From assembly GCA_963721685.1 (NCBI GenBank), contig CAVRJJ010000005.1, positions 167,943-231,942 on the forward strand: a stretch of 64,000 bases of DNA. Direction: 5' to 3'. Position 1 is the stretch's first letter. Each line of letters starts with the position of its first letter. The translations under genes and the position numbers were made by a program. Positions 16,429-50,572 of the stretch are shown here, piece by piece. The DNA is from an uncultured bacterium. GTDB lineage: Bacteria > Patescibacteriota > Saccharimonadia > UBA4664 > SCTI01. The notes below the pieces were generated by a model. The model saw only the letters and a list, made by a program, of their open reading frames with translations, ran no database searches and was not told where the DNA came from.

Positions 16429-17551
16429 TGAATGCACTTCTATAAACTTCAAGTGTTTGCTGCGCCATAGTGTTCCATGAAAATTGCTGGAGACGCTTAC
16501 TCCCGCGGCTAACAAGAAGCTCTTGTTCTTTTTCTGACTTTATTAAAAGCAGCATTTTAGCGGAAATATCTTCAATATCCTGGGGATTGATAAAAAGCGC
16601 GGCATCACCGGCAATTTCCGGCAAGCAGGTGGTGTTAGAGCAAATAATGGGCCGCCGCATTGCCATTGCCTCCAACAAGGGAATGCCAAAACCTTCAAAT
16701 AAGGATGGGTAAACCAGGGCAAAGCATTTTCCATATACGGCCGGCAAACTAGCGTAAGGGAGATACCCTAAGATATGAACATGGTTGGCAATGCCAAGTT
16801 CTGCCGCGGCTTTGCTTATAGTGCCGACAGCTCCGGTATTTATCCCCGACAAGACCAACGAAAATTCAGGATGATTTTCAACAACCTTTGCAAAGGCTTT
16901 TAACAGGCGCTGGTGATTTTTATGAGGCCAGGTTGCCGCGGGATAATAAAAGTAGCGACTGGGCAGTGTGTCCGTGGGCGGGTATTGTCTATTGGGCTGG
17001 AACAGTTCTTCATCGTAGCTCAAATGTACCGTTGTAATCTTTTGGGCATTTATACCGTATCGCCCAACGATGCTGGCTTTTGTAAAGTCGGAGATGGCAA
17101 TAATTGCGTCAGCGGCCTCCGCGGAAGGGGCGTAGGTAGCTTTTCTCCCTCTTAGCTCGCTTGGGGTAAAAAATTCCGGATGAAATTCGTGCTGCATGTC
17201 CATAAAGCTCAGAACGGTTTTCGTTCGAACTCCTTCAGGGAAGATAGTTTGGAAGGGAAAGTGCACTACATCAAGATGCGCGGCGTTGATGCGCTGGGAT
17301 TGTCTGGATTGTAAAAAAGGTAATTGAAGTTTGCGCAGAACTTTGTCAGCGAACGATTCTTCTTCAAGCAGGACAACCTTAAAATGGGGGTTATCAAGCA
17401 CTAACTCGTGGGCACACTCGCGCCGTAGGAATATGATGTAGTGATTCTTCTTGTCGATGTGCTGCAATGATCTAATCAGGTTTCGGAAATATGTTTCAGT
17501 ACCGCCGGTTTTGCCCGGCATAAGACCCCAGCCTACAATTCCTATCTTCAT
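16421..17551 (-). CDS. Glycosyltransferase family 1
   Basis: LFEGFGIPLLEAMAMRRPII. Confidence 0.85.
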   Translation of the reverse strand: MKIGIVGWGLMPGKTGGTETYFRNLIRSLQHIDKKNHYIIFLRRECAHELVLDNPHFKVVLLEEESFADKVLRKLQLPFLQSRQSQRINAAHLDVVHFPFQTIFPEGVRTKTVLSFMDMQHEFHPEFFTPSELRGRKATYAPSAEAADAIIAISDFTKASIVGRYGINAQKITTVHLSYDEELFQPNRQYPPTDTLPSRYFYYPAATWPHKNHQRLLKAFAKVVENHPEFSLVLSGINTGAVGTISKAAAELGIANHVHILGYLPYASLPAVYGKCFALVYPSLFEGFGIPLLEAMAMRRPIICSNTTCLPEIAGDAALFINPQDIEDISAKMLLLIKSEKEQELLVSRGSKRLQQFSWNTMAQQTLEVYRSAFND

Positions 17552-18645
17552 ACCAGCTTATTATACAGGGCAACAATCTTGTCTTTCACCATACGTTCCA
17601 GGTCAAATTGCTGCCGGGCTTTTGCTTGGGCTTGGCGGCCCAGTGTGACACGCTGGGATTCGTTGGAAAGCAAGTTTACCAGCGCACCGGCCAAGGCTTC
17701 TGGTTGCTTAGGAGCGACTAAAAGGCCGGTTTCGCCGTCTTGAATCAATTCTGGAATTCCGCCTACATTGGTCGCAACAATTGCCGTACCTTTGTGCATG
17801 GCTTCGCATATGGAAAGCGAAAAAGCCTCGCTGTGGGAAGGGAAGGCAAATACCCAGCATTCGGAAAGACTTTTGCTAATCTGCTCGGGCGGCATGAAAC
17901 CCAAGAACTCAAAACTACCCTTAAGCTTTTGCCGCGCCTGGACGAGTAAGCTTTCGTCGTCAACCCCGGCGGCCACTATTAGCCTGACGCCTTTAATCTG
18001 CTTTTTCACTAAGACCATCGCTTCAATCAGATCTACAAACCCTTTTTCGTACTGAATACGGGCGGTGCTAAATACCATCGGATGTGCCGAGGGGGAACGG
18101 GTCCCGCTAAATAGCCGCCCTTTCACGCCATTGTAAATTACGGAAGATCTGGAGGCTAAATGGGGGAAATTTTTGATAGCTACATCGCGCTCCGCCTTAG
18201 AAACAAAAATGGCATGGTCGACATGGCGCGTCATTACCTTCAGTAGTTTTGTCTGCCACCGAAGCGTAAACTCCAACACATGCTTCAGGTCGCCATGGTC
18301 AGTCCAAACAGCCTTACGTCCTAATAGTTTAGCCGCTATAGTTCCGTATACCTGGGCGTCTCGGCCGGACAAATTTACAATGCTTACACGGTACCTGGCA
18401 ATTAAGTACATGTACCGCAATACGGTGCGGGGCCCAATCCAAAGGTATTTGCGCCCCGCGCTGTTTTCCGCCCATGGCACTTGCTCAACGGTAAACTCCA
18501 AATCCTGCATTATTTTAGCCAATTCTGGCTGCTGCGTAACCATGACCGAATGAATCTTGTGCTTTTTTAGTTCCGGCAAGAGAGACGCGTAATATAGCTC
18601 GGCACCACCCAGCTTATAGGCGTTTCTAGCGTGCAAGACTACCAT
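17548..18645 (-). CDS. Glycosyltransferase family 1
   Basis: HSEAFSLSICEAMHKGTAIVATNVGGIPE. Confidence 0.85.
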   Translation of the reverse strand: MVVLHARNAYKLGGAELYYASLLPELKKHKIHSVMVTQQPELAKIMQDLEFTVEQVPWAENSAGRKYLWIGPRTVLRYMYLIARYRVSIVNLSGRDAQVYGTIAAKLLGRKAVWTDHGDLKHVLEFTLRWQTKLLKVMTRHVDHAIFVSKAERDVAIKNFPHLASRSSVIYNGVKGRLFSGTRSPSAHPMVFSTARIQYEKGFVDLIEAMVLVKKQIKGVRLIVAAGVDDESLLVQARQKLKGSFEFLGFMPPEQISKSLSECWVFAFPSHSEAFSLSICEAMHKGTAIVATNVGGIPELIQDGETGLLVAPKQPEALAGALVNLLSNESQRVTLGRQAQAKARQQFDLERMVKDKIVALYNKLV

Positions 18646-19435: not shown

Positions 19436-20648
19436 ATACCTTCAGCATATTTTGGGCATAAATCGGCCAGCTAATATTTTTTTCAACAAACTCACGTCCG
19501 TTTTTCGATAGCTTTTGGCGCAGGCGGGGATCTTTAATTAGCTGTTCAATCCGCTCGGCAATCTCCTCGGGCTGGCAGGGTTCAACCAATAGGGCGTTCA
19601 CCCCGTCTTCCAAAACTTCATGGGCGCCCGCTGTTTTTGAAACAATTACGGGAGTACCGGAAGCCATCGCCTCAAAAACAGCTAAACCCCAAGTTTGGTT
19701 GTGGTTGGGAAAAGCAAAAACATCGGCGTTCCGGTACTGGTGCTGTAGCTCTTCCTCCGTGACACGACCAAGAAAGCTAACGTTGTCGGTTACGCGGTGT
19801 TTTTTAACCCGGGAGCGCAACTCACTCCCATAGGATGCGTCGAACTCGTCGCTGCCGACAATGTTTAAGTGGACGCTATGGCCTTGGCCTAGCAGAATTT
19901 TAACGCTATCAATTAAGTCCTCAAACCGCCGCAGGCGGAAAAGTATGCCGGTGCCCAGAATCGTAAAAGTCTTATTTGATTTGGTGTAATTGGGGCTGAA
20001 GCGTTCCAAGTCCAGTCCGCTGCGAATGATGCGCGCATCCTTGTCCATGTAGTGCTTGAATTGGTCCTGGTTACGCTTATCCAGGACCACCACCTCGTTA
20101 ATCGGACGAACGAACCGCAGTTCACGCTGGACTTCAAGCCAAAACAAAAAGTTTTGAAGCTTGATGGAAATCCAGCCCTTCCAAGAACCGGCTTGACGCG
20201 GATGTTGCTGGTTGTGGGCTTGAATCTGAAAAATGCCGGGAACATCATTTGACATCCATACTGTTTTGGCGCCAGGGCTTCGTTTTAAATAGTAATAGGC
20301 CACCCGCTCGGTGAAGAGGTCGTGGAGGTTAAGGACGTCGAAGCCTTCCTCTATGATTCCCGCCAGCTCCTTGATTTGGCTGTCGAATAGGTGAAATTGC
20401 TGGTACGAGTCAAAGCGCAACTGGGCTAGTTTGCCGGTATCTCCAGGCCGTTCCACTTTTGCGACATCTTTTACTAAATACTTGATGTTTAAATTTTTTA
20501 CCAGCTCGGGGTAGCACCGTTCTGCGTTAAAGCCGTAAGTATATACCACCACCTCGTGTTTATCCGCAAGGTGATTGGCGAGCTCAATAGCTTGGCGCTG
20601 GGTTCCGCCGCTGACGCTTAAATCCCACACTATAACCGCGATTTTCAT
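19413..20648 (-). CDS. Glycosyltransferase family 1
   Basis: VFEAMASGTPVIVSKTAGAHE. Start set at the ATG forming an ATGA overlap with the wzx stop; the maximal ORF reaches 20666. Confidence 0.8.
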   Translation of the reverse strand: MKIAVIVWDLSVSGGTQRQAIELANHLADKHEVVVYTYGFNAERCYPELVKNLNIKYLVKDVAKVERPGDTGKLAQLRFDSYQQFHLFDSQIKELAGIIEEGFDVLNLHDLFTERVAYYYLKRSPGAKTVWMSNDVPGIFQIQAHNQQHPRQAGSWKGWISIKLQNFLFWLEVQRELRFVRPINEVVVLDKRNQDQFKHYMDKDARIIRSGLDLERFSPNYTKSNKTFTILGTGILFRLRRFEDLIDSVKILLGQGHSVHLNIVGSDEFDASYGSELRSRVKKHRVTDNVSFLGRVTEEELQHQYRNADVFAFPNHNQTWGLAVFEAMASGTPVIVSKTAGAHEVLEDGVNALLVEPCQPEEIAERIEQLIKDPRLRQKLSKNGREFVEKNISWPIYAQNMLKVFEDVAKG

Positions 20649-34722: not shown

Positions 34723-34752
34723 TTGACCAGATAGAGCCGGGAATCGTATACT
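34723..34752 (+). promoter_or_regulatory. Putative sigma70-type promoter of tRNA-Asn
   Basis: TTGACC (34723-34728) - 18 nt - TATACT (34747-34752), 18 nt upstream of the tRNA 5' end. Confidence 0.4.
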
Positions 34753-34770: not shown

Positions 34771-34845
34771 TCCGGCGTAGCTCAGTGGTAGAGCAGTTGA
34801 CTGTTAATCAATTGGTCGCAGGTTCGAATCCTGCCGCCGGAGCCA
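34771..34845 (+). tRNA. tRNA-Asn (anticodon GUU), CCA encoded
   Basis: Manual fold: acceptor TCCGGCG/CGCCGGA, D arm GCTC-AGTGGTA-GAGC, anticodon arm GTTGA-CTGTTAA-TCAAT (GTT), T arm GCAGG-TTCGAAT-CCTGC, discriminator G, CCA. Confidence 0.9.
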
Positions 34846-34932
34846 AAGGCGAGAAGATAACTTCTGTTATCGCCTCGCCTTTTGTTTTGGCAGGCAGGCT
34901 CCAAACCTAGGTTCGGTGGATGAGGAAATAGA
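34839..34932 (+). repeat. Direct repeat copy 1 (tRNA 3' end GGAGCCA + terminator hairpin + ~50 bp), bracketing the GAF cassette
   Basis: About 80% identical to 35569..35663. Both begin with GGAGCCAAAGGCGAGAAGATAAC and share ...AAACCTRGGTTCGGTGGATGAGGAAAT. Confidence 0.7.
34848..34888 (+). terminator. Rho-independent terminator after tRNA-Asn
   Basis: GGCGAG-AA-GATAAC TTCT GTTATC-GC-CTCGCC followed by TTTTGTTTT. Confidence 0.6.
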
Positions 34933-35050
34933 ATACAACGACTAAGCCAGACGTACACGTGGTATACTTCGATTAATATATACTTCAAGTATCACGTCCT
35001 ATTATTAACAAGGGGAGCATGCCATTAAAACAAGCATTCTAGATGATGAG

Positions 35051-35476
35051 TTGAAGCAAATCCGAGAGTTAGACAAAATCACCAGCGATGCGTCAGAATT
35101 CTTTAATGTCCCTTACGCGATGATAAATCTCGTAACATCGGATAGAGTTATATTCAAGTCTTGTACTGGTCTGGTTGTGGGCGATTCATTGGATCGTAAT
35201 GGTTCATTTTGCTCAGCGGCTTCGCAAAAAGATAGTCCGCTGGTCATAAAAGATGCGACTCAGGACTCTTACTTTAAAACTAATCCGCTGGTCGTTGGAA
35301 GCTTAAAAATACGATCATATGCTGGAAAATCATTACATGCACCTGACGGCACACGGATGGGCACTCTCTGCCTCCTCGATACAGTACCAAGAGATTACAC
35401 GAAGGAGCAGCTTCGTTCTTTGACGGACCGGGCAAAGCTGGCGAGCATAACGCTACATGCGATTTTAACTACCTAG
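35051..35476 (+). CDS. Stand-alone GAF-domain protein
   Basis: 141 aa with a GAF-like pattern of conserved Gly/Cys/Asp. TTG start with a weak RBS; the start is uncertain. Confidence 0.5.
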   Translation: MKQIRELDKITSDASEFFNVPYAMINLVTSDRVIFKSCTGLVVGDSLDRNGSFCSAASQKDSPLVIKDATQDSYFKTNPLVVGSLKIRSYAGKSLHAPDGTRMGTLCLLDTVPRDYTKEQLRSLTDRAKLASITLHAILTT

Positions 35477-35568
35477 CCAATTGCGCCTGGTGCCGCGGTG
35501 CGCAACATCCCCAACAATTTCTTTTGTGGTCATGGCAGGTTAAGCAGTTTGAAAATCGTCCCAGATGG

Positions 35569-35663
35569 GGAGCCAAAGGCGAGAAGATAACATCGGTTAT
35601 CGCCTCGCCCTTTGTTTTAGATGGAGGGATGCGAAACCTGGGTTCGGTGGATGAGGAAATGGA
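35569..35663 (+). repeat. Direct repeat copy 2, including a second terminator hairpin with covarying loop (ATCG instead of TTCT)
   Basis: GGAGCCAAAGGCGAGAAGATAACATCGGTTATCGCCTCGCCCTTTGTTTT... The stem is preserved and the loop changed. Confidence 0.7.
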
Positions 35664-35717
35664 TGAGAATGCACGCCAGTATATTCTTTCCAATGACGAA
35701 GGAGGTGGCGAAGCCAC

Positions 35718-35747
35718 AATCCTGCCGCCAGAGCCATTGCACTTATG
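35718..35747 (+). repeat. att-like junction 1: 19-nt copy of the tRNA-Asn 3' half (AATCCTGCCGCCaGAGCCA, 1 mismatch) fused to TTGCACTTATG
   Basis: Compared by eye to 34827-34845 of the tRNA. Confidence 0.65.
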
Positions 35748-35825
35748 CCTGTTCCATCATTCTGTTATTGTTAACGAATGCGGAGACATCCATAAATAGC
35801 ATCGCTTATTCTCGCAGTAATATTA

Positions 35826-36239
35826 GTGCCCTCTCTTTTTTTCGGCTTTCAAGCAGTCAAAGAGGAAAGTACTAAGAGTAATATAAAATCGGAGCTAGCT
35901 TCATTTAAAACCCCCAATGGTTGCACAGAAGTCGACAGAGCTTACCAAGCAGGAGGAATTGATGTTAAGTCCTTATGGTACGTTTACTATGAGTGCAGTG
36001 CCACGGTAGGGGTCATTCATTCTGACTTAATGAGTGCTTTGAAGAAAAATGGCTATATTGTCAGTGATGACCCTTTTGACAAAGAAGAGCATTTTGACCG
36101 GCACCTCAGCATTCCATTTTATAAATCACAAGAGTATTTGGCTTCCTGCGCCTTTGATTTTTCAGAATGGGAAGAAAGTGGTAAAACTTTTGAAAATCGT
36201 AATGTCAAAAAGATCACTCTTTCTCTAAGAAAAATATAA
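35826..36239 (+). CDS. Hypothetical protein (cassette gene)
   Basis: 137-aa ORF downstream of junction 1. No recognizable domain; start uncertain. Confidence 0.4.
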   Translation: MPSLFFGFQAVKEESTKSNIKSELASFKTPNGCTEVDRAYQAGGIDVKSLWYVYYECSATVGVIHSDLMSALKKNGYIVSDDPFDKEEHFDRHLSIPFYKSQEYLASCAFDFSEWEESGKTFENRNVKKITLSLRKI

Positions 36240-36357
36240 GCATTTAGAGTAGATTTCTTCCAGACCCTGTTTTACGCACCGAAGGTAGCGGTTAGTCGCT
36301 TAGCTTCCTCTAAATCACAATCAAACTCTGTTTCTTTGTTCTGGAACAAGACCGCTA

Positions 36358-36378
36358 GGGGGAGCCATTGCACTTATG
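36358..36378 (+). repeat. att-like junction 2 (GGGGGAGCCATTGCACTTATG)
   Basis: Motif copy preceded by CGCTAGGG, as at junction 6. Confidence 0.55.
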
Positions 36379-36383
36379 TTTGC

Positions 36384-38156
36384 TCAATTCAAGTTAAAAG
36401 AAAAATTGTCAGGATTTATATCATAGTCTGGAGCAAGTTTTTTAAATTCGGCTAAGAAAATACGATGAGCTTGGACTTTTAGTTGCGGAGGTACTTTTTG
36501 GCCTTCTGCTAAGCCAAGTCTCTGTAAGGTTCTACTTCCTGCCTCTTCAAGGGCTTTAGTGCGATGGCTGGTTAGCGATTCGGGTGCGTCCGTGGTCGGT
36601 TCACTTCCTAAGGCAATCCCTTCAGCTATTTGCGTAGGGATTTTAGGTGACGGCCTACCGACAAAAGCTTCTTGTAAATCTTCGGGCAAAGCCTTTACTA
36701 GTTCAAGAATTTTATCGGCCTCCGCGTCGCTCGCGTATAAAACGATGCCGTCAGCCCGCAATGATATCTTCTCGCCGCGTGCTGCTCGTTGTGTATCCTG
36801 GCATAGTTCCATAGCCCGATCCAGCATTTTGCCGTGGACTGTCAGACCTGATTCATTAGCTGCCTTCATAAGCGCTGAAAAAACCTTTACAGAATCCTCG
36901 GGTCTCGGGTTCAGGTAAATCCGCTTGGTCATTTCAGTATTTTGATTTCGCCCTTCCGCTTTAGCCTTAGCGTAGGAGTCACTTGACCAGTGAATAAATT
37001 GTCCTGAAACTTCTTCCTGAAAGCGTATATTAGGCCTTACCCCACGAACTTTGCCATCTGTGCTTAATATATTAATTGGTCTTGGTTCGCCGGGTATAGG
37101 AATAGGTAAGCCCTCAAACTGTATATCCTGTCCGCGAGCATGTGCACCAGCGGCAACTTTACTAAAGAATTCCCTTCCATCTGGATCGCCATCTCTTAGT
37201 TCTTGTTGATATCTAGTCCTGGCATCAACCAATAATTTCCTTTCGCCGCGACCGAGTTCGCCTGAAACCGCAATTTTTAAATTATCGGCGATCATTGCTC
37301 TGATTTGGCTATGAATATCAGCGAGCGTACCAGGCTTTTGGGCCGCTTCATAGTCATCCTGGGTCGCAGGCACTTTATCTAAAAATACCTTTAAGACGGT
37401 TGCTTCGCCTTCTGGATTTGTAAGCACTTCATTCAATAGATTCATAACGAAATCCTCGGAAAAGCCGCGCGATATTTTTTCAGCCTCTTCAAATGATGAG
37501 GCTCTAAATGGCAACTTTTCTTTTGATTTCGCTTCTTTTTCTTCTAAATCGACTAAGTCTTTGTATTCACCTAGCCTATAGTCATCATATCCCGGTGCTT
37601 TCAAGCGAATCATTTGCATCATAACTTTTTTTGCTATATTCACCTTTGCTAACTCTTCTTTGCGCCATTCTTTATCCTCACGGTTGGGACTGATACGGAC
37701 TGCATGTTCGCCATTGCTCCAAGCGTATCCAACATCAACGGCGTTCGCGCTTCCGCTTGCAATGATTTTTTGAGCGATGGCATCAATATCTGCGACATCA
37801 AGCTGGGTGGGGTAGATAGTACTTTCGGTATCTACGGGCTCTTCGGGTCTTTGATCTTCCGGGACACGCCTTCTAGTTTCCCTGACAACATTTAATAAGT
37901 TCTGGCTAGATCTATCGAATTCATCCGAATTAGTAATACTTTGAGCGACAGAATCTATAAGATTACCTCTGATGGTTTGAAGCTGTTCATCTGAGAATCG
38001 TTCGTAAGGATTTGGCGCTGTTTCGCTTTCTACTTTCGGCTGGCCAGCTTCGGGTTTTCCCTGTATAGCCTCAAGCTCTTCGGCCAAAGCTTCCCCTGAA
38101 AAGGTTTTAGTCTCAGATTGTGCTTCTGGTGTTGTAGTGCCCTCAGGATTACTCAT
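36384..38156 (-). CDS. Large acidic hypothetical protein (590 aa), no recognizable domain
   Basis: Long uninterrupted ORF with an E/D-rich N-terminus, possibly phage- or plasmid-derived. No catalytic motif identified by eye. Confidence 0.55.
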   Translation of the reverse strand: MSNPEGTTTPEAQSETKTFSGEALAEELEAIQGKPEAGQPKVESETAPNPYERFSDEQLQTIRGNLIDSVAQSITNSDEFDRSSQNLLNVVRETRRRVPEDQRPEEPVDTESTIYPTQLDVADIDAIAQKIIASGSANAVDVGYAWSNGEHAVRISPNREDKEWRKEELAKVNIAKKVMMQMIRLKAPGYDDYRLGEYKDLVDLEEKEAKSKEKLPFRASSFEEAEKISRGFSEDFVMNLLNEVLTNPEGEATVLKVFLDKVPATQDDYEAAQKPGTLADIHSQIRAMIADNLKIAVSGELGRGERKLLVDARTRYQQELRDGDPDGREFFSKVAAGAHARGQDIQFEGLPIPIPGEPRPINILSTDGKVRGVRPNIRFQEEVSGQFIHWSSDSYAKAKAEGRNQNTEMTKRIYLNPRPEDSVKVFSALMKAANESGLTVHGKMLDRAMELCQDTQRAARGEKISLRADGIVLYASDAEADKILELVKALPEDLQEAFVGRPSPKIPTQIAEGIALGSEPTTDAPESLTSHRTKALEEAGSRTLQRLGLAEGQKVPPQLKVQAHRIFLAEFKKLAPDYDINPDNFSFNLN

Positions 38157-38295
38157 ATACTCATTAAACGCTACCTATGCTTCAAAGTCTAACCTGGGAA
38201 ATAGCCGCGCGATTGACAAGTTTTCGCCAGGTTGAAGTAACTTCCCGATTTCTATCACCTCGTGCAGATATCCAGTTCGTAACGTCCGGGGCAAA

Positions 38296-38314
38296 GGGAG
38301 CCGTTGCACTTATG
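38296..38314 (+). repeat. att-like junction 3 (GGGAGCCGTTGCACTTATG)
   Basis: Motif copy in the divergent region between the 590-aa gene and the 171-aa gene. Confidence 0.55.
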
Positions 38315-38338
38315 TTTATAACCTGACACTATGAAGCT

Positions 38339-38854
38339 ATGATGAATCTCTATCATTTTGTTCCAGAAAACATGCAAGGGTCTGTTCTCTATTCACTTAA
38401 TGACATGAAGACAAAAATTCCCAAGCTTTTTAACCAACAGGCAGCTAAATATAAAGAGAGGGAGGAGGTGAAAGAAACGGCTATTCCGGGCTTAGGTGGC
38501 TGGAATGATGTTATCCATTTGTCTCCAATAGATCCGAACAAGGTTATGGCGGCGCTAAAAAATGCTAGTGTCCCGACCGACTTTGCATGGAAAGCGTTTC
38601 AGATCAACGCAGACACACTTGATTGGGCTAAGCTTATTATCATGGTGACTGTTAAAGACGAAGATGGTTACCACAAAGAGTTTCTGCCTTTTACCAAAGA
38701 GAACTACGAAAAGCACAATGACGTCCCCGAACTTACAAAGCAGTACTATTCAGAATGCGTTGCAAAAGGGGAACAGCCTTTAACCTATGGCGGTGCTCCT
38801 CATGTACTATATAAGGGCGTCATTGACACAAAAAGTTTGAAAATTATCTCTTAG
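38339..38854 (+). CDS. Hypothetical protein (171 aa)
   Basis: ORF directly after junction 3. No recognizable domain. Confidence 0.5.
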   Translation: MMNLYHFVPENMQGSVLYSLNDMKTKIPKLFNQQAAKYKEREEVKETAIPGLGGWNDVIHLSPIDPNKVMAALKNASVPTDFAWKAFQINADTLDWAKLIIMVTVKDEDGYHKEFLPFTKENYEKHNDVPELTKQYYSECVAKGEQPLTYGGAPHVLYKGVIDTKSLKIIS

Positions 38855-38877
38855 GGGGAGCCAATTTTGCATTTATA
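38854..38877 (+). repeat. att-like junction 3b, degenerate (GGGGGAGCCAATTTTGCATTTATAG)
   Basis: Starts at the stop codon of the 171-aa gene. Shares the GGAGCCA...TTGCA..TTAT skeleton. Confidence 0.4.
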
Positions 38878-39010
38878 GACGCCAAAGCTGCCTCTTCTAA
38901 GGGTAGCTCTCTGTTATGGGTTGGAGTCATTTAGATATGCAGCACGCCATCTTTTATTTTTTCTTCTAGCATAAGGAAAAAGGAAAAAATATATTTCAAA
39001 AAGCTAATGA

Positions 39011-39080
39011 TGACGACATATGATACGACATAGTATTAATAGAGTTGACATAGGACACGACATAGTGTAGTATTAAGACA
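39011..39080 (+). repeat. Two tandem ~32-bp iteron-like units with GACATA cores (39015, 39027, 39047, 39059) upstream of the DUF4325 gene
   Basis: GACATATGATACGACATAGTATTAATAGAGTT / GACATAGGACACGACATAGTGTAGTATTAAGA. Core spacing 12/20/12. Confidence 0.55.
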
Positions 39081-39082
39081 TT

Positions 39083-40111
39083 ATGACTATTCAGGAACAG
39101 ATTCAAGCTGTCGCCAAAAACAAGAAAGTTTTCAAAACTTCAGACGTAGCCAAGGAAGCACCAGAGTTTTCAAGGCAATACATTAGTTCGATAATTAGCG
39201 ATCAAGTAAGAAAAGGTACCCTCGTAAGGGAGGGATCAGGTCGCTGGTCTACTTACGCGCTTCCACAATATAAAGATTATTTAGGCCATAGATTACGAAG
39301 GCGCCTAAAGCTTAATGGCCTCAAAGAGCATGAAGTACTTGACGATATCATGCGGGTTAGTACCTTGCTAACAAGGATACCTGAAAATATTCAAAGCATA
39401 TTCAACTATGCTTTTTCTGAAATGCTAAATAACGCCATAGATCACTCTCGCTCTAAAAATGCTGTAACTGAAGTCATAGAAGAAGATGAAGGGCTCAAAT
39501 TCATAGTTGATGACTTCGGGGTTGGGGTTTTCCGTAATGTTATGCAAGAAAGGAACCTTAACTCTGAGCTAGAGGCAATCCAGGACTTACTTAAAGGCAA
39601 AACAACTACAGCCCCTCAGGCCCATTCAGGCGAAGGTATTTTCTTTACTTCTAAAGCAGCCGATGTGTTTATGCTAGAAAGCTTTGGTTTAAGATTAAGA
39701 ATAGACAATAAGATTAAAGATATTTTCGTGGAAGAGGTTGGCACGGAGAAAAAGGGTACCAGAGTAACTTTTGAAGTTTCCACAAAATCAAAGAAGCACT
39801 TAGCAGATTTATTCGCTAAATATCAGACTCACTCTGAAGAACCAGCGTTTGATAAGACCGAAATCCAAGTAAGGCTTTACACCATGGGTACTATCTATGT
39901 CTCCAGGTCACAGGCTAGAAGGGTGTTAACTGGTCTGAACAAATTTCGCACAGTAATCCTTGATTTCGAAAATGTTCCAACTATTGGGCAAGCATTTGCA
40001 GACGAGATTTTTAGAGTATTCAAAAATGCGAATCCAAATATCACAATTAAGATCGCAAACGCGAATGAGGCAGTTCAGTTTATGATTATACGATCCCAGT
40101 CATCCAGTTGA
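39083..40111 (+). CDS. wHTH - GHKL (RsbW/SpoIIAB-like) ATPase - STAS-like (DUF4325) single-chain protein
   Basis: N box FSEMLNNAIDHS, G1 IVDDFGVGV, G2 HSGEGIFFTS. The C-terminus TVILDFENVPTIGQAFADEIF resembles an anti-sigma-antagonist/DUF4325 fold. N-terminal ~90 aa is helical and basic. Confidence 0.65.
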   Translation: MTIQEQIQAVAKNKKVFKTSDVAKEAPEFSRQYISSIISDQVRKGTLVREGSGRWSTYALPQYKDYLGHRLRRRLKLNGLKEHEVLDDIMRVSTLLTRIPENIQSIFNYAFSEMLNNAIDHSRSKNAVTEVIEEDEGLKFIVDDFGVGVFRNVMQERNLNSELEAIQDLLKGKTTTAPQAHSGEGIFFTSKAADVFMLESFGLRLRIDNKIKDIFVEEVGTEKKGTRVTFEVSTKSKKHLADLFAKYQTHSEEPAFDKTEIQVRLYTMGTIYVSRSQARRVLTGLNKFRTVILDFENVPTIGQAFADEIFRVFKNANPNITIKIANANEAVQFMIIRSQSSS

Positions 40112-40150
40112 CATAAGATTTAGACATAGAATTTTAGTTGCCGACATAAC
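40106..40150 (+). repeat. Iteron-like GACATA units downstream of the DUF4325 gene (cores at 40110, 40123, 40143)
   Basis: TTGACATAAGATTTAGACATAGAATTTTAGTTGCCGACATAAC. Same 13/20 spacing and orientation as the upstream array. Confidence 0.5.
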
Positions 40151-40181
40151 ATCCAATTTATTGATATGGCATGTTCACTGC

Positions 40182-40201
40182 GGAGAGCCATTGCACTTAT
40201 G
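40182..40201 (+). repeat. att-like junction 4 (GGAGAGCCATTGCACTTATG)
   Basis: Motif copy adjacent to the 3' end of the minus-strand DUF1905 gene. Confidence 0.55.
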
Positions 40202-40202
40202 T

Positions 40203-40514
40203 TTAGAACTCTCGCAACTTGAAAGATATGCGTACTTTATCACCTAGCTCAAGCTTTTCGCTTTTTCGCACCTTAGTATTTATAGCAATGAAGTGTGTGC
40301 CATCGCCCATAGGCAGCAGGGAGGTTGGCCAGGTACTACTTCCTAGGGTTGCCTCAACAGCAATCAACCCCCGGTCTGCAAGTTCATGCAGCGGTTGACT
40401 AACGCTCAACGGTGCGGCGACATAATACCAACCCCCTTCCTGGGGGAAAAGTTGCAGTACCCCACTAAAGCTAAATGGCTTCATGAGCCAATTATATATG
40501 ATGATCAATAGCAA
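40203..40514 (-). CDS. DUF1905-like small protein (N-terminal half of a YdeI-type protein)
   Basis: 103 aa with a pattern that fits DUF1905 (GGWYYVAAP ... HFIAIN ... GDKVRISF). Confidence 0.5.
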   Translation of the reverse strand: MLLIIIYNWLMKPFSFSGVLQLFPQEGGWYYVAAPLSVSQPLHELADRGLIAVEATLGSSTWPTSLLPMGDGTHFIAINTKVRKSEKLELGDKVRISFKLREF

Positions 40515-40548
40515 TCTTTATCTTGATAGCTTTTAGAACGGCTAAAAC

Positions 40549-41457
40549 ATGCTTGCTATAATGAGCGGGATGCCAGAACCAACTCAGCCAAATTATTCCA
40601 AGCAAATAAGTTCAGATTTTCCTAACTTGGTTGTTGAAAAAGTAGAAAAACTTGGTACGGGTTGGGATCATGTTGCGCTGGAAGTAAATGATTCTTTGAT
40701 CTTCCGTTTTCCGCGGGATATTTCTGATGTAGATGAGATTTCCCAGACTGTCGTTTACGAGACGAAGGTATTGCGGCATCTGCAGGACAAACTGCCCGTT
40801 GCTATACCGGACCCACAGCATATTGCTCCCGATCATGCTTATTTTGGCTATCCAAAACTCCAAGGCGAAAAGCTCATTGATATTTTGCCAAGCTTTAGCG
40901 AAGCTGACAAAGCCGCCTTGTGGGACGATTGGGTGGATATAGCGACTGCCATTCATCAGAATGTATCTGTTGATATGGCTCGCAAACTTGGTGTGCCGAA
41001 CTTGGATATTCATATAGAGACAGCAAAGGAGGTTTTCAGCTTAGAAAATATTGACTCTCAGGTTGTAAGCTTTGCCCAGAATACTATAGAAGCGGCGGAA
41101 GCAATTGACATGAATAAGCTGCCACTTTTGTTTATCCATAACGACCTACAATTTCATAATTTGCTCGTCGACCCTGAAACAAAACGGGTTATCGCGGTCA
41201 TTGACTGGACAGATGTTTGTATAGGTACGACGGAGAGGGAGTTAGCAATGTGGGAGTGGTGCCATGATGATCAGCTAGATGAAGTGGCTAAAAGATATAC
41301 AGCTAAGACAGGTAGGGCGGTTGACAGAGACCAGGCAAAAGTTTTTAGGAAGATTGAAGAAGTAGGCGATTACGTCGAGCAGATAAAAAGTGGTGATCTT
41401 GAAGGGGTCGAAGAATCCTTAGCACATATTCGAAAATGGATTGCCGAAGTCGCATGA
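40549..41457 (+). CDS. Aminoglycoside/choline-kinase-like phosphotransferase (APH family)
   Basis: Catalytic loop HNDLQFHNLLVD and the Mg-binding IDWTDVCIG (Brenner motif and DFG-like D). Confidence 0.7.
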   Translation: MLAIMSGMPEPTQPNYSKQISSDFPNLVVEKVEKLGTGWDHVALEVNDSLIFRFPRDISDVDEISQTVVYETKVLRHLQDKLPVAIPDPQHIAPDHAYFGYPKLQGEKLIDILPSFSEADKAALWDDWVDIATAIHQNVSVDMARKLGVPNLDIHIETAKEVFSLENIDSQVVSFAQNTIEAAEAIDMNKLPLLFIHNDLQFHNLLVDPETKRVIAVIDWTDVCIGTTERELAMWEWCHDDQLDEVAKRYTAKTGRAVDRDQAKVFRKIEEVGDYVEQIKSGDLEGVEESLAHIRKWIAEVA

Positions 41458-41505
41458 GGTATACGCGTCCATTTTGCGTAATATTATGAATGATATGATA
41501 ATGCA

Positions 41506-41853
41506 ATGAGCCACTTGGAAACCTTTTTTATCCTAAGTCTCGCAACGCAATTAGTCCATTCAATTGAAGAGTTAACAACGGGTTTTCACAAACAATACTA
41601 TCTCTTTAAGATGTCCTTTAAGGCATTTCTAGCCTTTGAAATATTATTTACCCTGTTCTGGGTGGGAGTGCTTCTGCTGCCAGACTCTCCGTCCAAGGGC
41701 TACCTGCAAGCTTTCTTCCTCATCCTGATGTTTGCCAATGGTGTGCAACATCTAGTGTGGTGGGGAACTGTAAAAAAGTATGTTCCGGGTTTAATAACGG
41801 CTTTCGTCCATGCCGCACTATTTTTGGCCTTTTACTATAAGAGCATTTTTTAA
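41506..41853 (+). CDS. HXXEE-domain small membrane protein
   Basis: HSIEEL motif near the N-terminus and 3-4 transmembrane helices. Confidence 0.45.
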   Translation: MSHLETFFILSLATQLVHSIEELTTGFHKQYYLFKMSFKAFLAFEILFTLFWVGVLLLPDSPSKGYLQAFFLILMFANGVQHLVWWGTVKKYVPGLITAFVHAALFLAFYYKSIF

Positions 41854-42527
41854 TGGCATACTACAAACGTTTTCAACTTGTTACCCACTTTTTTCTCTGG
41901 CCTCGGCTGCTTGCGTGGTTTTACCGCAAAGGCATGGATGACGTTAAGAGTCTTGGGCTTAAACCTGACTTTAACAAGGAAGATTTTTCCTGTCTGCTCT
42001 GCGGGGTGAGCGGAGAAATAACAGCCGAGGTCTTCATTAACTTTGTTATCAGTAAAAATAAGCAAGCCAACATTATCATTATTGATCTTGGCGAAGAACA
42101 GGTAGCCGCTGTTCAGTCGCTCGTAAACCGGAAATACAAAGATCATAACATTAGCGTTAAACAAATGAACGTCCTCGATATATCAAAGCATTTTAAGCCA
42201 AACTCCTTTGATTGGATTGAAACGGACGGTCTGGTTGAATACTTAGACAAGCCAGGAATTCAAAGTCTATTAACGCAATGGAAAGCGTTGCTAAGACCGG
42301 GCGGCTTCATTACTACCCGTGACTTTGCCAGCTCATCTATACCAGGCCGATTACTCGATAAGTTTCGTATGTGGTTTATGAAAAATTACCTAACCCTCAA
42401 TGGCTACGTTCATACCAAGCAGGAACTAGATGAGGCATTTAGAAAAATCGGCTTTATCTTTAATTCCGGGCCGACGCCAATCCCGACCTTCAAGCGTTAT
42501 GCGCTCATAGAAAAGGACACTCGCTAA
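41853..42527 (+). CDS. Class I SAM-dependent methyltransferase-like protein
   Basis: Rossmann-like IIIDLGEEQ / NVLDISKHF segments, about 224 aa. Start overlaps the upstream stop. Confidence 0.5.
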   Translation: MAYYKRFQLVTHFFLWPRLLAWFYRKGMDDVKSLGLKPDFNKEDFSCLLCGVSGEITAEVFINFVISKNKQANIIIIDLGEEQVAAVQSLVNRKYKDHNISVKQMNVLDISKHFKPNSFDWIETDGLVEYLDKPGIQSLLTQWKALLRPGGFITTRDFASSSIPGRLLDKFRMWFMKNYLTLNGYVHTKQELDEAFRKIGFIFNSGPTPIPTFKRYALIEKDTR

Positions 42528-42716
42528 GAGGTGGGGAGGAATCAATAATTGAAATACCAACACACACCGAAGCCGATCTAATTAAGTTTAATGAGGTATT
42601 TTCTTTCCTATCATAAGTGGCACTTTCGGGATCAGCCAGAAGGTAAGAGTAGTCGCTTAGTATGGTATAGGTCCAAATCAAACGCTGTTCCTTTGTTCGG
42701 AAGCAAGTCAACCAGT

Positions 42717-42734
42717 GGAGCCATTGCACTTATG
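42717..42734 (+). repeat. att-like junction 5 (GGAGCCATTGCACTTATG)
   Basis: Motif copy 47 bp upstream of the pilin-like gene. Confidence 0.55.
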
Positions 42735-42780
42735 CTTATATTATTGCTACACTGAGCTTAATTAACTCAAGAGAGCACTC

Positions 42781-43320
42781 ATGATAAAGCTGAACCAAAA
42801 GGGATTTACCGGCTTTGAAGTTGTATTAATCGTTATTGCCCTGGTAGCTATTGGAGCAGCGGGCTACTTCGCGTATGAAGCGCGGCAAGATAAAACCGTT
42901 CTTGTAGCCGCACCAAAGAAAACAGAGAAGACGATTCAAGCTCAACCACAGCCTGTAAGTAGTAAGCCAGAAACAACTAGTGTTTATAATATTAAAGATC
43001 TTGGAGTTGAATTTGCGCTGCCCTCAAGTATCTCCGATCTATCGTATAAAGTCGTCAACTTAGGTGGTGAGCAAGCGGTTAGCTCTGTGACTTTTTCAAC
43101 TAAGCGGTTGGAAGCGGCAGGCTGTTCACTTGATTCAGCGCCTCTTGGACATTTAACATATACGGAAGGAAAGGGAGGTATTCTAGTTGCCTCCGCGAGA
43201 GGATCCAACCTTTATTATATAGAGCCCAAAGGAAGCTGTAGCGCAGACCCAAGCCTTAGAAACTGGCAGAAGCTGAAGGAAGCTCTCAAAACTACTGTGA
43301 GTGACTACAAGGGAGGGTAA
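42781..43320 (+). CDS. Prepilin-type (type IV pilin / ComGC-like) N-terminal cleavage/methylation protein
   Basis: MIKLNQKG|FTGFEVVLIVIALVAIGAAGYFAY: Gly at -1, Phe at +1, Glu at +5, then a hydrophobic helix. Confidence 0.6.
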   Translation: MIKLNQKGFTGFEVVLIVIALVAIGAAGYFAYEARQDKTVLVAAPKKTEKTIQAQPQPVSSKPETTSVYNIKDLGVEFALPSSISDLSYKVVNLGGEQAVSSVTFSTKRLEAAGCSLDSAPLGHLTYTEGKGGILVASARGSNLYYIEPKGSCSADPSLRNWQKLKEALKTTVSDYKGG

Positions 43321-43423
43321 GTAAAGCTGGCTCGTTGGGTGGGCCAGTCGGGAGCCATAAATAGTAGACTCAGCTCATTGACTGGGCATCGGCCGGCAAA
43401 TTAGATGCCTCTTTCTAGCTATT

Positions 43424-43675
43424 TCAACGATGATCGCAGCCGGCCCAGCAACAGGGACGGCGCATTCCCTCTATAAGCTCCGTGCGCGTTCTTTCAATAC
43501 GCCGTGCCCTCGTCTCAGTCTTCTTAGCTTCTTCAACCCAGCATATCCATTCATTGCGCGCCAGCGGTGTAATATCTTCCCATGCCGCTAAAGCCGTCGA
43601 GGTAGAAAGCAGGGCTTTTTTTAAGTCCGCTGGCATTTCGTGTGCCACACCCCCAGCGATTTCTTTTGTAGCCAT
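43424..43675 (-). CDS. YdeI/OmdA C-terminal-domain protein
   Basis: ITPLARNEWICWVEEAKKTETRARRIERT matches the OmdA/YdeI C-terminal pattern. Confidence 0.5.
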   Translation of the reverse strand: MATKEIAGGVAHEMPADLKKALLSTSTALAAWEDITPLARNEWICWVEEAKKTETRARRIERTRTELIEGMRRPCCWAGCDHR

Positions 43676-43710: not shown

Positions 43711-43727
43711 AGGGCATTGCACTTATG
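43711..43727 (+). repeat. att-like junction 6, degenerate (AGGGCATTGCACTTATG) followed by TGTTATAAT
   Basis: Preceded by CGCTAGGG as at junction 2. An extended -10-like TGTTATAAT lies downstream. Confidence 0.5.
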
Positions 43728-48862: not shown

Positions 48863-50572
48863 ATGCACCTCATCTCAAAACGTTTCCCTCTCTCTATGGC
48901 TGCCATAATGGCATTCGGCCTGATGCTCGCCCTGCTGTCAATTCAGCCGGTACGGGCGGCGGATCCGGTAAAGCTTTCACTCGGCCCTCCATCGCAAAAT
49001 GTCAGCACTGGCTCTACCTTTCAAATGGCAATCAATTTAACCACTTTCGGCCAAGCGGTTGATACGGTTTCGGCATCGTTAACCTATCCCAGTGATCGCC
49101 TTACGTGCCAAAGCGTCACCACCACCTCGGATTTTACCTTTATTCCCCAACCGGATGTATGCAGCGGAGGAACCATCCTGGTTCAAAGGGGGCGAAGCAG
49201 TAATTACACGGCAAACGGGGTAATCGCCCTTGTTACCTTCAAGGCATTAATTCCAGGTTCAGCACCTGTACACCTTAATGACTCTTCAGTAGCGCTTACT
49301 GGGGGCGAGGATGTGCCTTACACCACCGAAGACGCTAATTATTTGGTGGTAAGCGGCCCTAAAATCTACGCCTGGACCTATGCTGGCCAGACGAGCAGTA
49401 AGCCTTTGAATAACATTCTTCCCGGCCAAACGGCAACCTTCACCGTGAGCGCCCTTAACTCAGGGTTTTATACCTGGACCAATAGCGGTGCCAATCCTGT
49501 TCGGCTCGGCGCTAGCCGACCCAACGACCGTACCAGCCCGTTTGCTACCCCCTCATGGCTGAGTCCGGCCAGAGCGGCAACATTAAATGAAGCCAGTGTC
49601 GCTCCCGGCCAAACAGGAACATTTACCTTTTCCGTTCAAACCCCGTCCCAGCCGGGGAATTATAAAGAGTACTACAATCTTTTGGCCGAAGGCATCACTT
49701 GGATGAATGACCCCGGTCTTTATTTTGGCGTTACTGTTTCCCCTCCTACCTACACCTGGTCCTTGGTTGGCCAAGGCGCTTACACCGATGCCTCAAAAGC
49801 TACACCGTTAAACCTGTCCCAACTAACCCCCAACCAGACAGGTTGGCTTGAACTTAAAGTCAGAAATACCGGCAACATGACGTGGACGAACTCCGGCCCT
49901 AACCCCGTACGCATCGGGAGCTCGCGTCCGCTTGAACGGGTGAGCCGTTACGCGACCCCCGCTTGGCTAACACCAAGCCGCCCCGGCAATTTGGTAGAGG
50001 CATCAGTTGCTCCGGGAGCCGTAGGTACCTTTGAGTTCCCCATAACCGCTCCATCAACCACGGGCACTTACATTGAATACTTTACCCCCTTGGCCGAAGG
50101 CATCACTTGGATGAACGACATTGGGCTAAGCTTTTATACGGTGGTTAGCCGAACCTACACCTGGTCCTTGGTTGGCCAAGGCGCTTACACCGATGCCTCA
50201 AAAGCTACACCGTTAAACCTGTCCCAACTAACCCCCAACCAGACAGGTTGGCTTGAACTTAAAGTCAGAAATACCGGCAACATGACGTGGACGAACTCCG
50301 GCCCTAACCCCGTACGCATCGGGAGCTCGCGTCCGCTTGAACGGGTGAGCCGTTACGCGACCCCCGCTTGGCTAACACCAAGCCGCCCCGGCAATTTGGT
50401 AGAGGCATCAGTTGCTCCGGGAGCCGTAGGTACCTTTGAGTTCCCCATAACCGCTCCATCAACCACGGGCACTTACATTGAATACTTTACCCCCTTGGCC
50501 GAAGGCATCACTTGGATGAACGACATTGGGCTAAGCTTTTATACGGTGGTTAATCCCGGGGGCGGGAAGTAG
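48863..50572 (+). CDS. Secreted surface protein: cohesin-like N-terminal domain plus three four-Trp repeat domains (the last two identical)
   Basis: Signal peptide, a cohesin-like beta-sandwich segment (KLSLGPPSQNVSTGSTFQMAINLTT...), then repeats homologous to those of 24358..26280. TTGCGC-N16-TATAAT promoter at 48797-48831. Confidence 0.7.
   Translation: MHLISKRFPLSMAAIMAFGLMLALLSIQPVRAADPVKLSLGPPSQNVSTGSTFQMAINLTTFGQAVDTVSASLTYPSDRLTCQSVTTTSDFTFIPQPDVCSGGTILVQRGRSSNYTANGVIALVTFKALIPGSAPVHLNDSSVALTGGEDVPYTTEDANYLVVSGPKIYAWTYAGQTSSKPLNNILPGQTATFTVSALNSGFYTWTNSGANPVRLGASRPNDRTSPFATPSWLSPARAATLNEASVAPGQTGTFTFSVQTPSQPGNYKEYYNLLAEGITWMNDPGLYFGVTVSPPTYTWSLVGQGAYTDASKATPLNLSQLTPNQTGWLELKVRNTGNMTWTNSGPNPVRIGSSRPLERVSRYATPAWLTPSRPGNLVEASVAPGAVGTFEFPITAPSTTGTYIEYFTPLAEGITWMNDIGLSFYTVVSRTYTWSLVGQGAYTDASKATPLNLSQLTPNQTGWLELKVRNTGNMTWTNSGPNPVRIGSSRPLERVSRYATPAWLTPSRPGNLVEASVAPGAVGTFEFPITAPSTTGTYIEYFTPLAEGITWMNDIGLSFYTVVNPGGGK
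49748..50557 (+). repeat. Perfect (by eye, 100% identical) 405-bp x 2 intragenic tandem duplication
   Basis: 49748..50152 equals 50153..50557 (ACCTACACCTGGTCCTTGGTTGGCCAAGGCGCTTACACC...). It encodes two identical 135-aa repeat units. Confidence 0.8.

Follow-up and report, generated by a model that had tools for sequence, protein, structure and literature searches.

A Saccharibacteria genome (candidate phyla radiation, CPR) carries at the 3′ end of a tRNA-Asn gene a direct repeat of about 90 nt, which returns on the far side of one gene for a stand-alone GAF-domain protein. The question raised by this locus is how a second copy of a tRNA end and its terminator came to stand there. The original prediction, made from the letters alone, took the arrangement for a minimal integrated element that had duplicated its target. 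The whole stretch of DNA analyzed, 64 kb long, is called the window throughout, and L-numbers (L002, L003, L048, L062 and others) denote the compared contigs and loci from other genomes, metagenomes and viral contigs. With a probability of about 0.72, the region could be explained as an accretion array formed by repeated site-specific insertion at the tRNA-Asn 3′ end, the enzyme most likely being a large serine recombinase (LSR). In that case the long repeat would probably not be a duplicated target; its copies would represent left-end modules, each a right half-site with a tRNA terminator, that successive insertions brought in. The locus suggests a conserved, sequence-defined hotspot, in which small accessory units accumulate at the last six bases of tRNA-Asn.

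The repeat pair and the GAF unit

The tRNA-Asn gene (GTT, with encoded CCA; 34771-34845, + strand) was identified by ARAGORN and Rfam (77 bits), and both find only this one tRNA at the locus. It adjoins glmS and lexA, lying downstream of both, and is preceded by a promoter-like site (TTGACC, 18-nt spacer, TATACT; 34723-34752, + strand), proposed from its consensus match alone (10 of 12 positions). The last six nucleotides of the gene, GAGCCA (34840-34845, + strand), comprise the last two acceptor bases, the discriminator G and CCA; this hexamer is the core on which the sites described below are centered. Immediately before it, the 3′ part of the tRNA, GTTCGAATCCTGCCGCCG (34822-34839, + strand), could serve as a left half-site of the B type.

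The two copies of the repeat (34839-34932 and 35569-35663, both + strand) differ by 12 substitutions and one 1-nt indel over 94 nt, which gives 86% identity in a global alignment instead of the roughly 80% first estimated. The same pair at the same coordinates was recovered by a repeat search and MAFFT, and self-search of the copies with blastn-short gave E = 2e-17. The imperfect direct repeat around the GAF gene is therefore real. The point at which the similarity begins is precisely GGAGCCA, the terminal 7 nt of tRNA-Asn. Copy 1 consists of the core, a hairpin (34848-34879, loop TTCT), a T tract (34880-34888) and, further on, a 30-nt tail (34903-34932); copy 2 has the core, a hairpin (35578-35609, loop ATCG), a T tract and a tail. 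The tail, AAACCTRGGTTCGGTGGATGAGGAAATRGA (34903-34932 and 35634-35663), is 93% alike between the copies, more than the 13 nt that precede it. Copy 2 was also considered as a decayed tRNA and rejected, since no tRNA similarity is present upstream of GGAGCCA and a single tRNA is predicted. Both copies resemble the native tRNA-Asn downstream regions of relatives, and TTTTGTTTTGGCAG is common to the copies and L063.

The hairpin, GGCGAG-AA-GATAAC / loop / GTTATC-GC-CTCGCC, is the same in both copies except for the change of loop from TTCT to ATCG, in agreement with the original prediction; TTTTGTTTT follows it in copy 1 and CTTTGTTTT in copy 2. Folds of 62 nt are stable in each case (-26.3 kcal/mol, z = -3.5 for copy 1; -20.2 kcal/mol, z = -2.1 for copy 2). 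Both hairpins are G+C-rich and run directly into a T tract, and an intrinsic (Rho-independent) terminator is predicted; a simple consensus terminator scan missed both hairpins, probably owing to the 2x2 internal loop. The description of the terminator loop as covarying had to be given up: no base pair is changed on both sides, the stem is invariant and the loop merely differs. Selection on the terminator structure, also proposed at the outset, agrees in part with the distribution of differences. None of the 13 falls within the 28 nt of stem and internal loop (hypergeometric P = 0.007), but the differences are uneven outside the stem too, with 7 of 13 concentrated in 13 nt (34890-34902) and 2 in the 30-nt tail, so that the uneven spread is no peculiarity of the stem.

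Between the copies lies the GAF open reading frame (ORF; 141 aa from TTG, 35051-35476, + strand; Pfam GAF, E = 7e-11). From 35009 the frame is open, homology with relatives sets in at 35042, and no in-frame start precedes the TTG at 35051. A Shine-Dalgarno sequence, AAGGGGAG, with an ATG at 35019 stands one base out of the GAF frame, and the frame of this ATG stops at 35040. The ATG is likely to be the original start of the gene, which may be frameshifted or decaying. The 640 bp contain more than the GAF protein, contrary to the original prediction. A 22-codon remnant (MTTKEIVGDVAH...; 35468-35533, - strand) of the start of an OmdA-like (PF13376) gene follows it, and directly 5′ of copy 2 lies a 24-nt recombination-site arm (35546-35569). 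This arm, AGTTTGAAAATCGTCCCAGATGGG, is of the P type and forms with the core GAGCCA site 2 (35546-35575, + strand), the right boundary of the GAF unit.

Seven further tRNA-Asn loci were obtained via LexA homologues, giving eleven compared in total. The GAF gene, whose presence or absence at orthologous loci had been named as a check, is found in none of the 10 others. A homologue with 77% protein identity forms a one-gene unit between GAGCCA sites in L048, an unrelated array from a soil metagenome, where a GNAT gene precedes it and a zeta toxin gene follows. In L065 another homologue (75% aa identity) follows a different tRNA (...CCTACACCCTGCACCA, then a hairpin), about 300 nt beyond its 3′ end; L065 also has an 11-nt partial repeat, CCTACACCCTG, at 171-183.

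The part of the original prediction that treats the GAF gene as an integrated unit is retained, since its junctions are attL-like and attR-like and a P-type half-site stands before copy 2. It does not stand alone, however: it is the member nearest the tRNA in an array of at least 8 sites over 8.9 kb. The idea of a duplicated target reaching beyond the tRNA is replaced: the shared core is only GAGCCA, and the other ~88 nt are better described as homologous left-end modules. The seemingly unusual reach of the target disappears, because the site is centered on the tRNA 3′ end. The repeat itself, not a covarying RNA, is probably an insertion scar with a portable terminator and is largely ordinary; the interesting part is the array and its serine-recombinase geometry.

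Site geometry and serine recombinases at tRNA 3′ ends

Forty-three sites were aligned on GAGCCA. The T-loop motif GTTCGA[AG] starts at -18 from GAGCCA in all eleven tRNAs, and a GTT[CT][TG]AA-like motif is located at -23 or -24 in 23 of the 26 motif-bearing internal sites (five more internal sites are without the motif). For the Listeria A118-family integrase, Rutherford et al. 2013 (PMC3783163) showed that attB has the motif of the zinc-ribbon domain 5 bp nearer the center than attP does. The same 5-nt shift of the outer motif is found at the tRNA-Asn sites, and it is because of this spacing that the tRNA can be read as a half-site of the B type and the arms as half-sites of the P type. In some right arms (site 7 of the window, L061, L064) the reverse-complement motif TTAGAA[AC] is found at +19 to +26, which places the center of symmetry at G1/A2 of GAGCCA. 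GAGCCA is invariant, and the base before it varies. A center at the first two bases would explain this invariance (the tRNA end must be rebuilt), the variable preceding base and the point where the repeat starts. A shared central dinucleotide at G1/A2, with exchange at the boundary of host and element, is putative.

The same 5-bp shift can be followed in a phage seen in two states. L081 and L082 (6541-6700 in each) belong to one phage; they show 100% identity as far as 6 nt into tRNA-Gln, past which point they are unrelated. On the tRNA strand, attL reads GGTTCGAATCCAGCCGCCC and, after the boundary, CAGCCAGACTGAACACGGGTTGCAATTTTGATTGTAACCCGTTGTTTTT; attP reads CGTTCGAAGATTGTCCAGCGAGGG and, after the boundary, CAGCCAGACTGAAC.... 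The phage supplies CAGCCA (the last six bases of the tRNA) together with a terminator hairpin and a T tract, and GTTCGAA is located at -18 in tRNA-Gln and at -23 in the phage attP. L084 and L092 show the same pattern. The anatomy of this pair reads as that of copies 1 and 2 of the window and of the arm at 35546-35569.

In 4 of the 11 tRNA-Asn loci (L056, L059/L060, L062 and L064), an LSR of 504-523 aa with Resolvase, Recombinase and zinc-ribbon domains is encoded at the tRNA-Asn 3′ end, inside a site-bounded element of the kind that lacks such a gene in the window. The gene is convergent with tRNA-Asn and overlaps its 3′ end, and the protein ends in WLRRQDSNL, residues read from the reverse complement of the tRNA. 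The L062 element (8.1 kb) ends in GGTTTGAAAATCGTACTAGAGGGTT and GAGCCA, the same arm as the one found before copy 2 of the window. After this element there is a 75-nt remnant of the 3′ end of an older, L064-type LSR gene (tblastn, E = 1.5e-5), and serial insertion at the tRNA with decay of the older recombinase gene therefore follows for L062. The L064 element ends in AGTTCTAACTTCC..., the commonest arm type, and in L048 an LSR fragment lies directly after one site. The cargo of L062 includes CD-NTase and Cap15 genes (16719-18211) of a cyclic-oligonucleotide-based antiphage signaling system (CBASS). Just past the last site of the L064 array, a tyrosine-recombinase gene was noted (19841-20621, - strand; weak PF00589 match).

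The LSR of L064 has 706 homologues at E <= 1e-20. Among the 112 full-length proteins in the best 120 of these, 68 have the C-terminus W-x3-4-[DEG]SN, equal to the reverse complement of CCA through the T-loop; 37 of the 68 have ‘WL’, corresponding to GAGCCA, and WY and WC classes also occur. The proteins stop at most three residues from the W in 22 cases. Searches of viral contigs with two single LSRs returned distant fragments only, and a profile search with the LSR alignment returned 32 loci; of the 22 that were searched for tRNAs, 8 have one (Arg, Pro or Gln) at the LSR 3′ end, convergent with the LSR gene. The whole family appears to target tRNA 3′ ends. Its named homologues (42-48% identity) come from Streptomyces, Kitasatospora and Frankia. 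The family thus has relatives in Actinobacteria, the phylum to which the hosts of Saccharibacteria belong.

What is observed directly comprises the sites, how they are built, how they are conserved from genome to genome, and the recombinase elements with the same arms, and it would be consistent with the following course of events. The left half of the primary site would be the T-loop and acceptor strand of the tRNA (B-type, motif 18 nt before GAGCCA). Incoming DNA would bring a left half-site with the motif 5 nt further out (P-type, -23 or -24) and a right side starting with (G)AGCCA, by which the tRNA would be rebuilt, and the hairpin and T tract directly after it would end the tRNA transcript. 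The product of an insertion would read tRNA-GAGCCA, new left-end module, cargo, P arm-GAGCCA and previous left-end module, and each insertion would displace the older units outward. Copy 1 would thus be the left-end module of the newest unit, that of GAF, and copy 2 the module of the previous occupant, which would have stood next to the tRNA before GAF arrived. The copies would be homologous and independently diverged, and their stems could be conserved because each has had to terminate the tRNA transcript. The enzyme would most likely be an LSR of the family adjoining tRNA-Asn in relatives, and the units of the window could be cargo remaining after deletion of the recombinase gene or could have been moved by a recombinase encoded elsewhere. 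LSR catalysis, a crossover in the first bases of GAGCCA and this order of events are what we infer from the sequences.

The array in the window and in related genomes

Downstream of the tRNA, GAGCCA-centered sites are located at 35570, 35731, 36362, 38298, 38858, 40185 and 42718, with a degenerate one at 43711, all on the tRNA strand. They delimit units of 1-4 genes inside a low-GC island (35-45 kb), across which GC drops from ~0.51 to ~0.42. The core is followed by TTGCACTTATG at 35731, 36362, 38298, 40185 and 42718, and the site at 38858 has diverged. Allowing at most 3 mismatches, GAGCCATTGCACTTATG has 6 matches where 0.23 would be expected; all are on the + strand, between 35.7 and 43.7 kb. 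A profile built from 20 sites gives window matches at E < 0.01 solely within 35546-42741, again on the + strand. The arms to the left of GAGCCA form families: AGTTTGAAAATCG... is shared by sites 2 and 6, GTTCTGGAAC and GTTCGGAAGC belong to sites 4 and 8, and AGTTCGTAAC to site 5.

Site 3 (35718-35747, + strand) is a displaced 19-nt tRNA 3′ end (AATCCTGCCGCCAGAGCCA; 35718-35736, chance expectation 0.01) followed by TTGCACTTATG. A 137-aa ORF with no Pfam match (35826-36239, + strand) separates it from site 4 (36338-36378, + strand), which has the arm GTTCTGGAAC..., GAGCCA and TTGCACTTATG. The next unit is a 590-aa ORF on the - strand (36384-38156) with a HopA1 effector-like domain (PF17914, E = 4.5e-8), located here in the island of an episymbiont genome. 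Site 5 (38274-38314, + strand; arm AGTTCGTAAC..., GAGCCG, TTGCACTTATG) is followed by a 171-aa ORF with no Pfam match (38339-38854, + strand). Site 6 (38834-38880, + strand) combines the arm AGTTTGAAAATTATCTC... and GAGCCA with the diverged right arm ATTTTGCATTTATAG, and a hairpin comes after it (38886-38908); a 342-aa ORF (HATPase-like and DUF4325; 39083-40111, + strand) then leads to site 7. Site 7 (40185-40210, + strand) has GAGCCA, TTGCACTTATG and TTTAGAACT, the reverse complement of the arm motif, and its left arm motif is absent. The four-gene unit beyond it (40203-42527) contains DUF1905 (- strand, 40203-40514) and, on the + strand, APH phosphotransferase, HXXEE and methyltransferase genes.

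Site 8 (42694-42734, + strand; arm TGTTCGGAAGC..., GAGCCA, TTGCACTTATG) resembles site 4, the 69 nt to the left of each being 72% identical. The last unit (42781-43675) has a pilin-like 179-aa ORF on the + strand and an OmdA-like 83-aa ORF on the - strand (43424-43675); the latter is an intact paralogue, at the island end, of the 22-codon remnant of the GAF unit. The degenerate last site, AGGGCATTGCACTTATG (43711-43727, + strand; 3 mismatches), is the weakest member of the family. In all, 3 of the 12 island ORFs are on the - strand (36384-38156, 40203-40514 and 43424-43675). Two other identities of the sites were tried and rejected: TTATGTTTA is like the XerD arm of dif, but neither a XerC arm nor an inner palindrome is present, and the arms, read by hand, do not fit the T-arm/acceptor geometry of a tRNA-like minihelix.

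Such sites are also conserved in other genomes. Three genomes of Saccharimonadales contain an exact 17-mer of the site sequence. In L003 and L006 it follows tRNA-Asn, on the same strand as the tRNA; L002 has no tRNA. The 17-mer has 35 genome-contig matches, of which 32, outside Saccharimonadales, are at chance level; its 6 matches in viral contigs are all due to chance, and in metagenomes it occurs in 6 loci only. A site of L006 that was absent from the profile training was recovered at E = 8e-9. In L003 the tRNA is directly followed by TTGCACTTATA and a terminator hairpin, and GAGCCA with TTGCACTTATR recurs four more times, with a terminator at 3 of the 4. The five units of L003 have one gene each (SGNH hydrolase, GNAT, histidine phosphatase, pilin-like and ASCH), and the geometry first noted around GAF is thus seen several times over. 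L058 and L061 contain additional sites, with the right arms TGCAATTATT and TGGAATTATC.

The content after tRNA-Asn differs in all eleven loci, and the accessory units at such loci include sensor domains, toxin-antitoxin pairs, defense genes and modifying enzymes. OmdA-like genes are present on six studied contigs (L002, L003, L051, L058, L061 and L063), five of which have such sites. The cargo of related arrays is rich in defense and addiction genes, as in L048 (1-12000), where YafQ, PemK, Fic/VbhA, zeta toxin and PIN genes were noted. No prior description of this locus type in Saccharibacteria or Patescibacteria was found in the searchable literature.

Two other features of the window lie outside the island. 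YidC (PF02096; 7153-8032) is split over the overlapping ORFs 7153-7623 and 7529-8032; the gene could be frameshifted or a pseudogene, or the split could stem from a sequencing error. A perfect 300-nt direct repeat (49748-50047 and 50153-50452, spaced 405 nt) inside a 569-aa ORF with Ig-like (N_BRCA1_IG) domains (48863-50572) points to a repeat unit that was recently duplicated in frame, or else to a collapse or expansion in the assembly.

Competing explanations and known systems

Several findings weigh against serial insertion by an LSR. Pfam on 30 ORFs, tblastn with three LSRs and an LSR C-terminus profile (97 C-termini; best E = 1.4 across 34.7-44 kb) detected no recombinase, of whatever kind, in the 64-kb window. 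The flanks of the repeat were tried as recombinase 3′-end remnants of the kind found in L062 and rejected, as blastx against four LSRs matched the tRNA-encoded part alone; a missing remnant does not count against an origin from LSR elements, because the LSR of the phage pair ends well short of the terminator. To the right of sites 1 and 2 (AAGGCGAG...), the TTGCACTTATG or GGAATTATT motif seen at all other sites is missing. Site 3 and three sites of L048 have displaced B-type arms, which a crossover inside GAGCCA cannot yield. The GAF unit of L048 has a site arm different from that of the window, and the nucleotide similarity of the two is confined to the GAF coding sequence (73% nt), so that gene and site are not obviously co-travelling. 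The empty site is not available from a near-identical strain, the closest LexA homologue (98% identical) being on a 925-bp contig. Canonical LSRs are not known to recombine attP with attL, and reuse of an occupied site needs a tolerant enzyme. Staphylococcal Ccr recombinases of the staphylococcal cassette chromosome (SCC) are a precedent for insertion at an occupied site, and together with L062 they would point to such an enzyme.

The array could alternatively be an active cassette platform, integron-like or SCC-like, in which one-gene units are moved in trans by an LSR encoded elsewhere and are not decayed leftovers. This is possible, though doubtful. The sites are far better conserved than the nearby intergenic DNA, the 17-mer being shared with genomes whose LexA proteins are only 75-90% identical to that of the window; the five one-gene units of L003 carry near-identical 60-nt site-plus-terminator modules with no recombinase remnant; internal junctions are sites with a full P arm and right arm; and GAF and OmdA-like genes recur in different arrays and positions. 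An excision product or empty site was, however, never observed among the loci compared, the LSR remnants beside sites in L062 and L048 show a route of decay, the GAF unit bears debris (the OmdA-like remnant and the out-of-frame start codon), and the GAF gene of L048 has a different arm.

The use of the sites by a tyrosine recombinase (a tRNA-targeting integrase or a Xer-like enzyme), with LSR elements merely sharing the hotspot, is improbable. tRNA genes are classically targets of tyrosine integrases. All tRNA attB sites of mycobacteria are used by tyrosine, not serine, integrases (PMC10654092), the 19-nt tRNA end of site 3 and the three tRNA-spaced arms of L048 would fit a crossover deeper in the tRNA, and a tyrosine-recombinase gene closes the far end of the L064 array. 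Most sites, on the other hand, have just 6 nt in common with the tRNA, the arm motif is moved outward by 5 nt in the manner characteristic of LSRs, the arm-bounded elements encode LSRs and no tyrosine integrase, and no tyrosine recombinase (PF00589) was detected among the 30 window ORFs scanned. Still less probable is that copy 2 arose by local segmental duplication, homologous recombination or gene conversion, with no site-specific insertion of GAF. The repeat is long (94 nt) and imperfect, the window is without a recombinase, both copies are like the native tRNA-Asn downstream regions of relatives, including L063, and Saccharibacteria are reportedly naturally transformable. Against this, the similarity starts precisely at the core GAGCCA, the conserved P-type arm before copy 2 also stands at element ends elsewhere, the pattern recurs seven more times downstream and in other genomes, and no two of the eleven loci have the same content beside tRNA-Asn. 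Least probable of all is that the 40-60-nt blocks are locally spread intergenic regulatory repeats (terminator or promoter modules) instead of recombination sites: hairpins and T tracts do follow several sites, and several stand just upstream of + strand genes, but the blocks are found solely downstream of tRNA-Asn, always include the last six bases of the tRNA in the tRNA orientation, even beside minus-strand genes (sites 4 and 7), and coincide with the ends of recombinase elements.

Saccharibacteria and other CPR bacteria have tiny genomes, and how such bacteria acquire genes is poorly understood. If serial insertion by an LSR is confirmed, GAGCCA and its arms could serve as a marker for charting the flexible gene pool of this lineage, the LSRs as candidate integration tools for organisms that are hard to engineer, and the sites as natural attB/attP pairs for serine integrases with a target present in every cell. 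A more tentative proposal is that Saccharimonadia have, at the tRNA-Asn 3′ end, a cassette platform driven by a serine recombinase, whose recombinase-less units of one to a few genes would each retain a complete attP-like site and a portable tRNA terminator and would be captured, excised and shuffled in trans; if true, a cassette platform integron-like in function with different enzymology could be a main route of gene flux in reduced episymbiont genomes.

The likeness to integrons is that mostly one-gene units, each ending in a recombination site, stand beside a fixed primary site and that the cargo in relatives includes toxin-antitoxin and acetyltransferase genes (L048). In contrast to integrons, no IntI is present, the primary site is a tRNA 3′ end, the neighbors of which are lexA and glmS, and the cassettes are not co-oriented (3 of 12 ORFs on the minus strand). 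An attC identity of the sites was rejected, as none of the 43 has an RYYYAAC/GTTRRRY palindrome; TTCTAAC, present in some arms, fits 6 of the 7 positions of RYYYAAC, without a GTTRRRY partner, and the junction is GAGCCA. In streptococci, integrative and conjugative elements (ICEs) and cis-mobilizable elements (CIMEs) accrete so that recombinase-less, att-flanked units stand in tandem with an integrase element at the 3′ end of a conserved gene. The units described here are similar in being recombinase-less and possibly mobilized in trans, whereas ICEs and CIMEs have tyrosine integrases, larger elements and Firmicutes hosts.

The att sites of serine integrases (Listeria A118 family) are similar in that the outer motif is 5 bp further out in attP, here -23/-24 versus -18; they differ in that the right half-sites here are poorly symmetric with the left ones and that canonical integrases do not reuse attL. 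Successive accretion at one tRNA is also known for the tycheposons of Prochlorococcus, which insert serially at a tRNA, push older elements inward and leave partial tRNA copies and remnants (bioRxiv 10.1101/2020.12.28.424599). Tycheposons depend on tyrosine recombinases and an att site of ~40 nt inside the tRNA, whereas here 6 nt are shared and serine recombinases are associated; instead of tRNA copies of tens of nucleotides with a tyrosine integrase, a tRNA copy of 19 nt is found at site 3 alone.

The SCC and SCCmec islands are similar to the tRNA-Asn loci in that LSRs insert at a single conserved gene, whose 3′ end they target and restore. In these islands the integration site is present in multiple direct copies (six and eight in two strains), which separate tandem elements, remnants and recombinase-less pseudo-SCC elements (PMC3900703). 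The target of SCC is rlmH (orfX) and is used by Ccr, while the target here is tRNA-Asn, the host belongs to the CPR, the units are far smaller (often one gene) and the array has no recombinase. Ccr and the LSRs of relatives have Pfam domains in common. As in SCC islands, at least 8 direct sites, all on one strand, follow the target gene, here tRNA-Asn, and delimit units without a recombinase.

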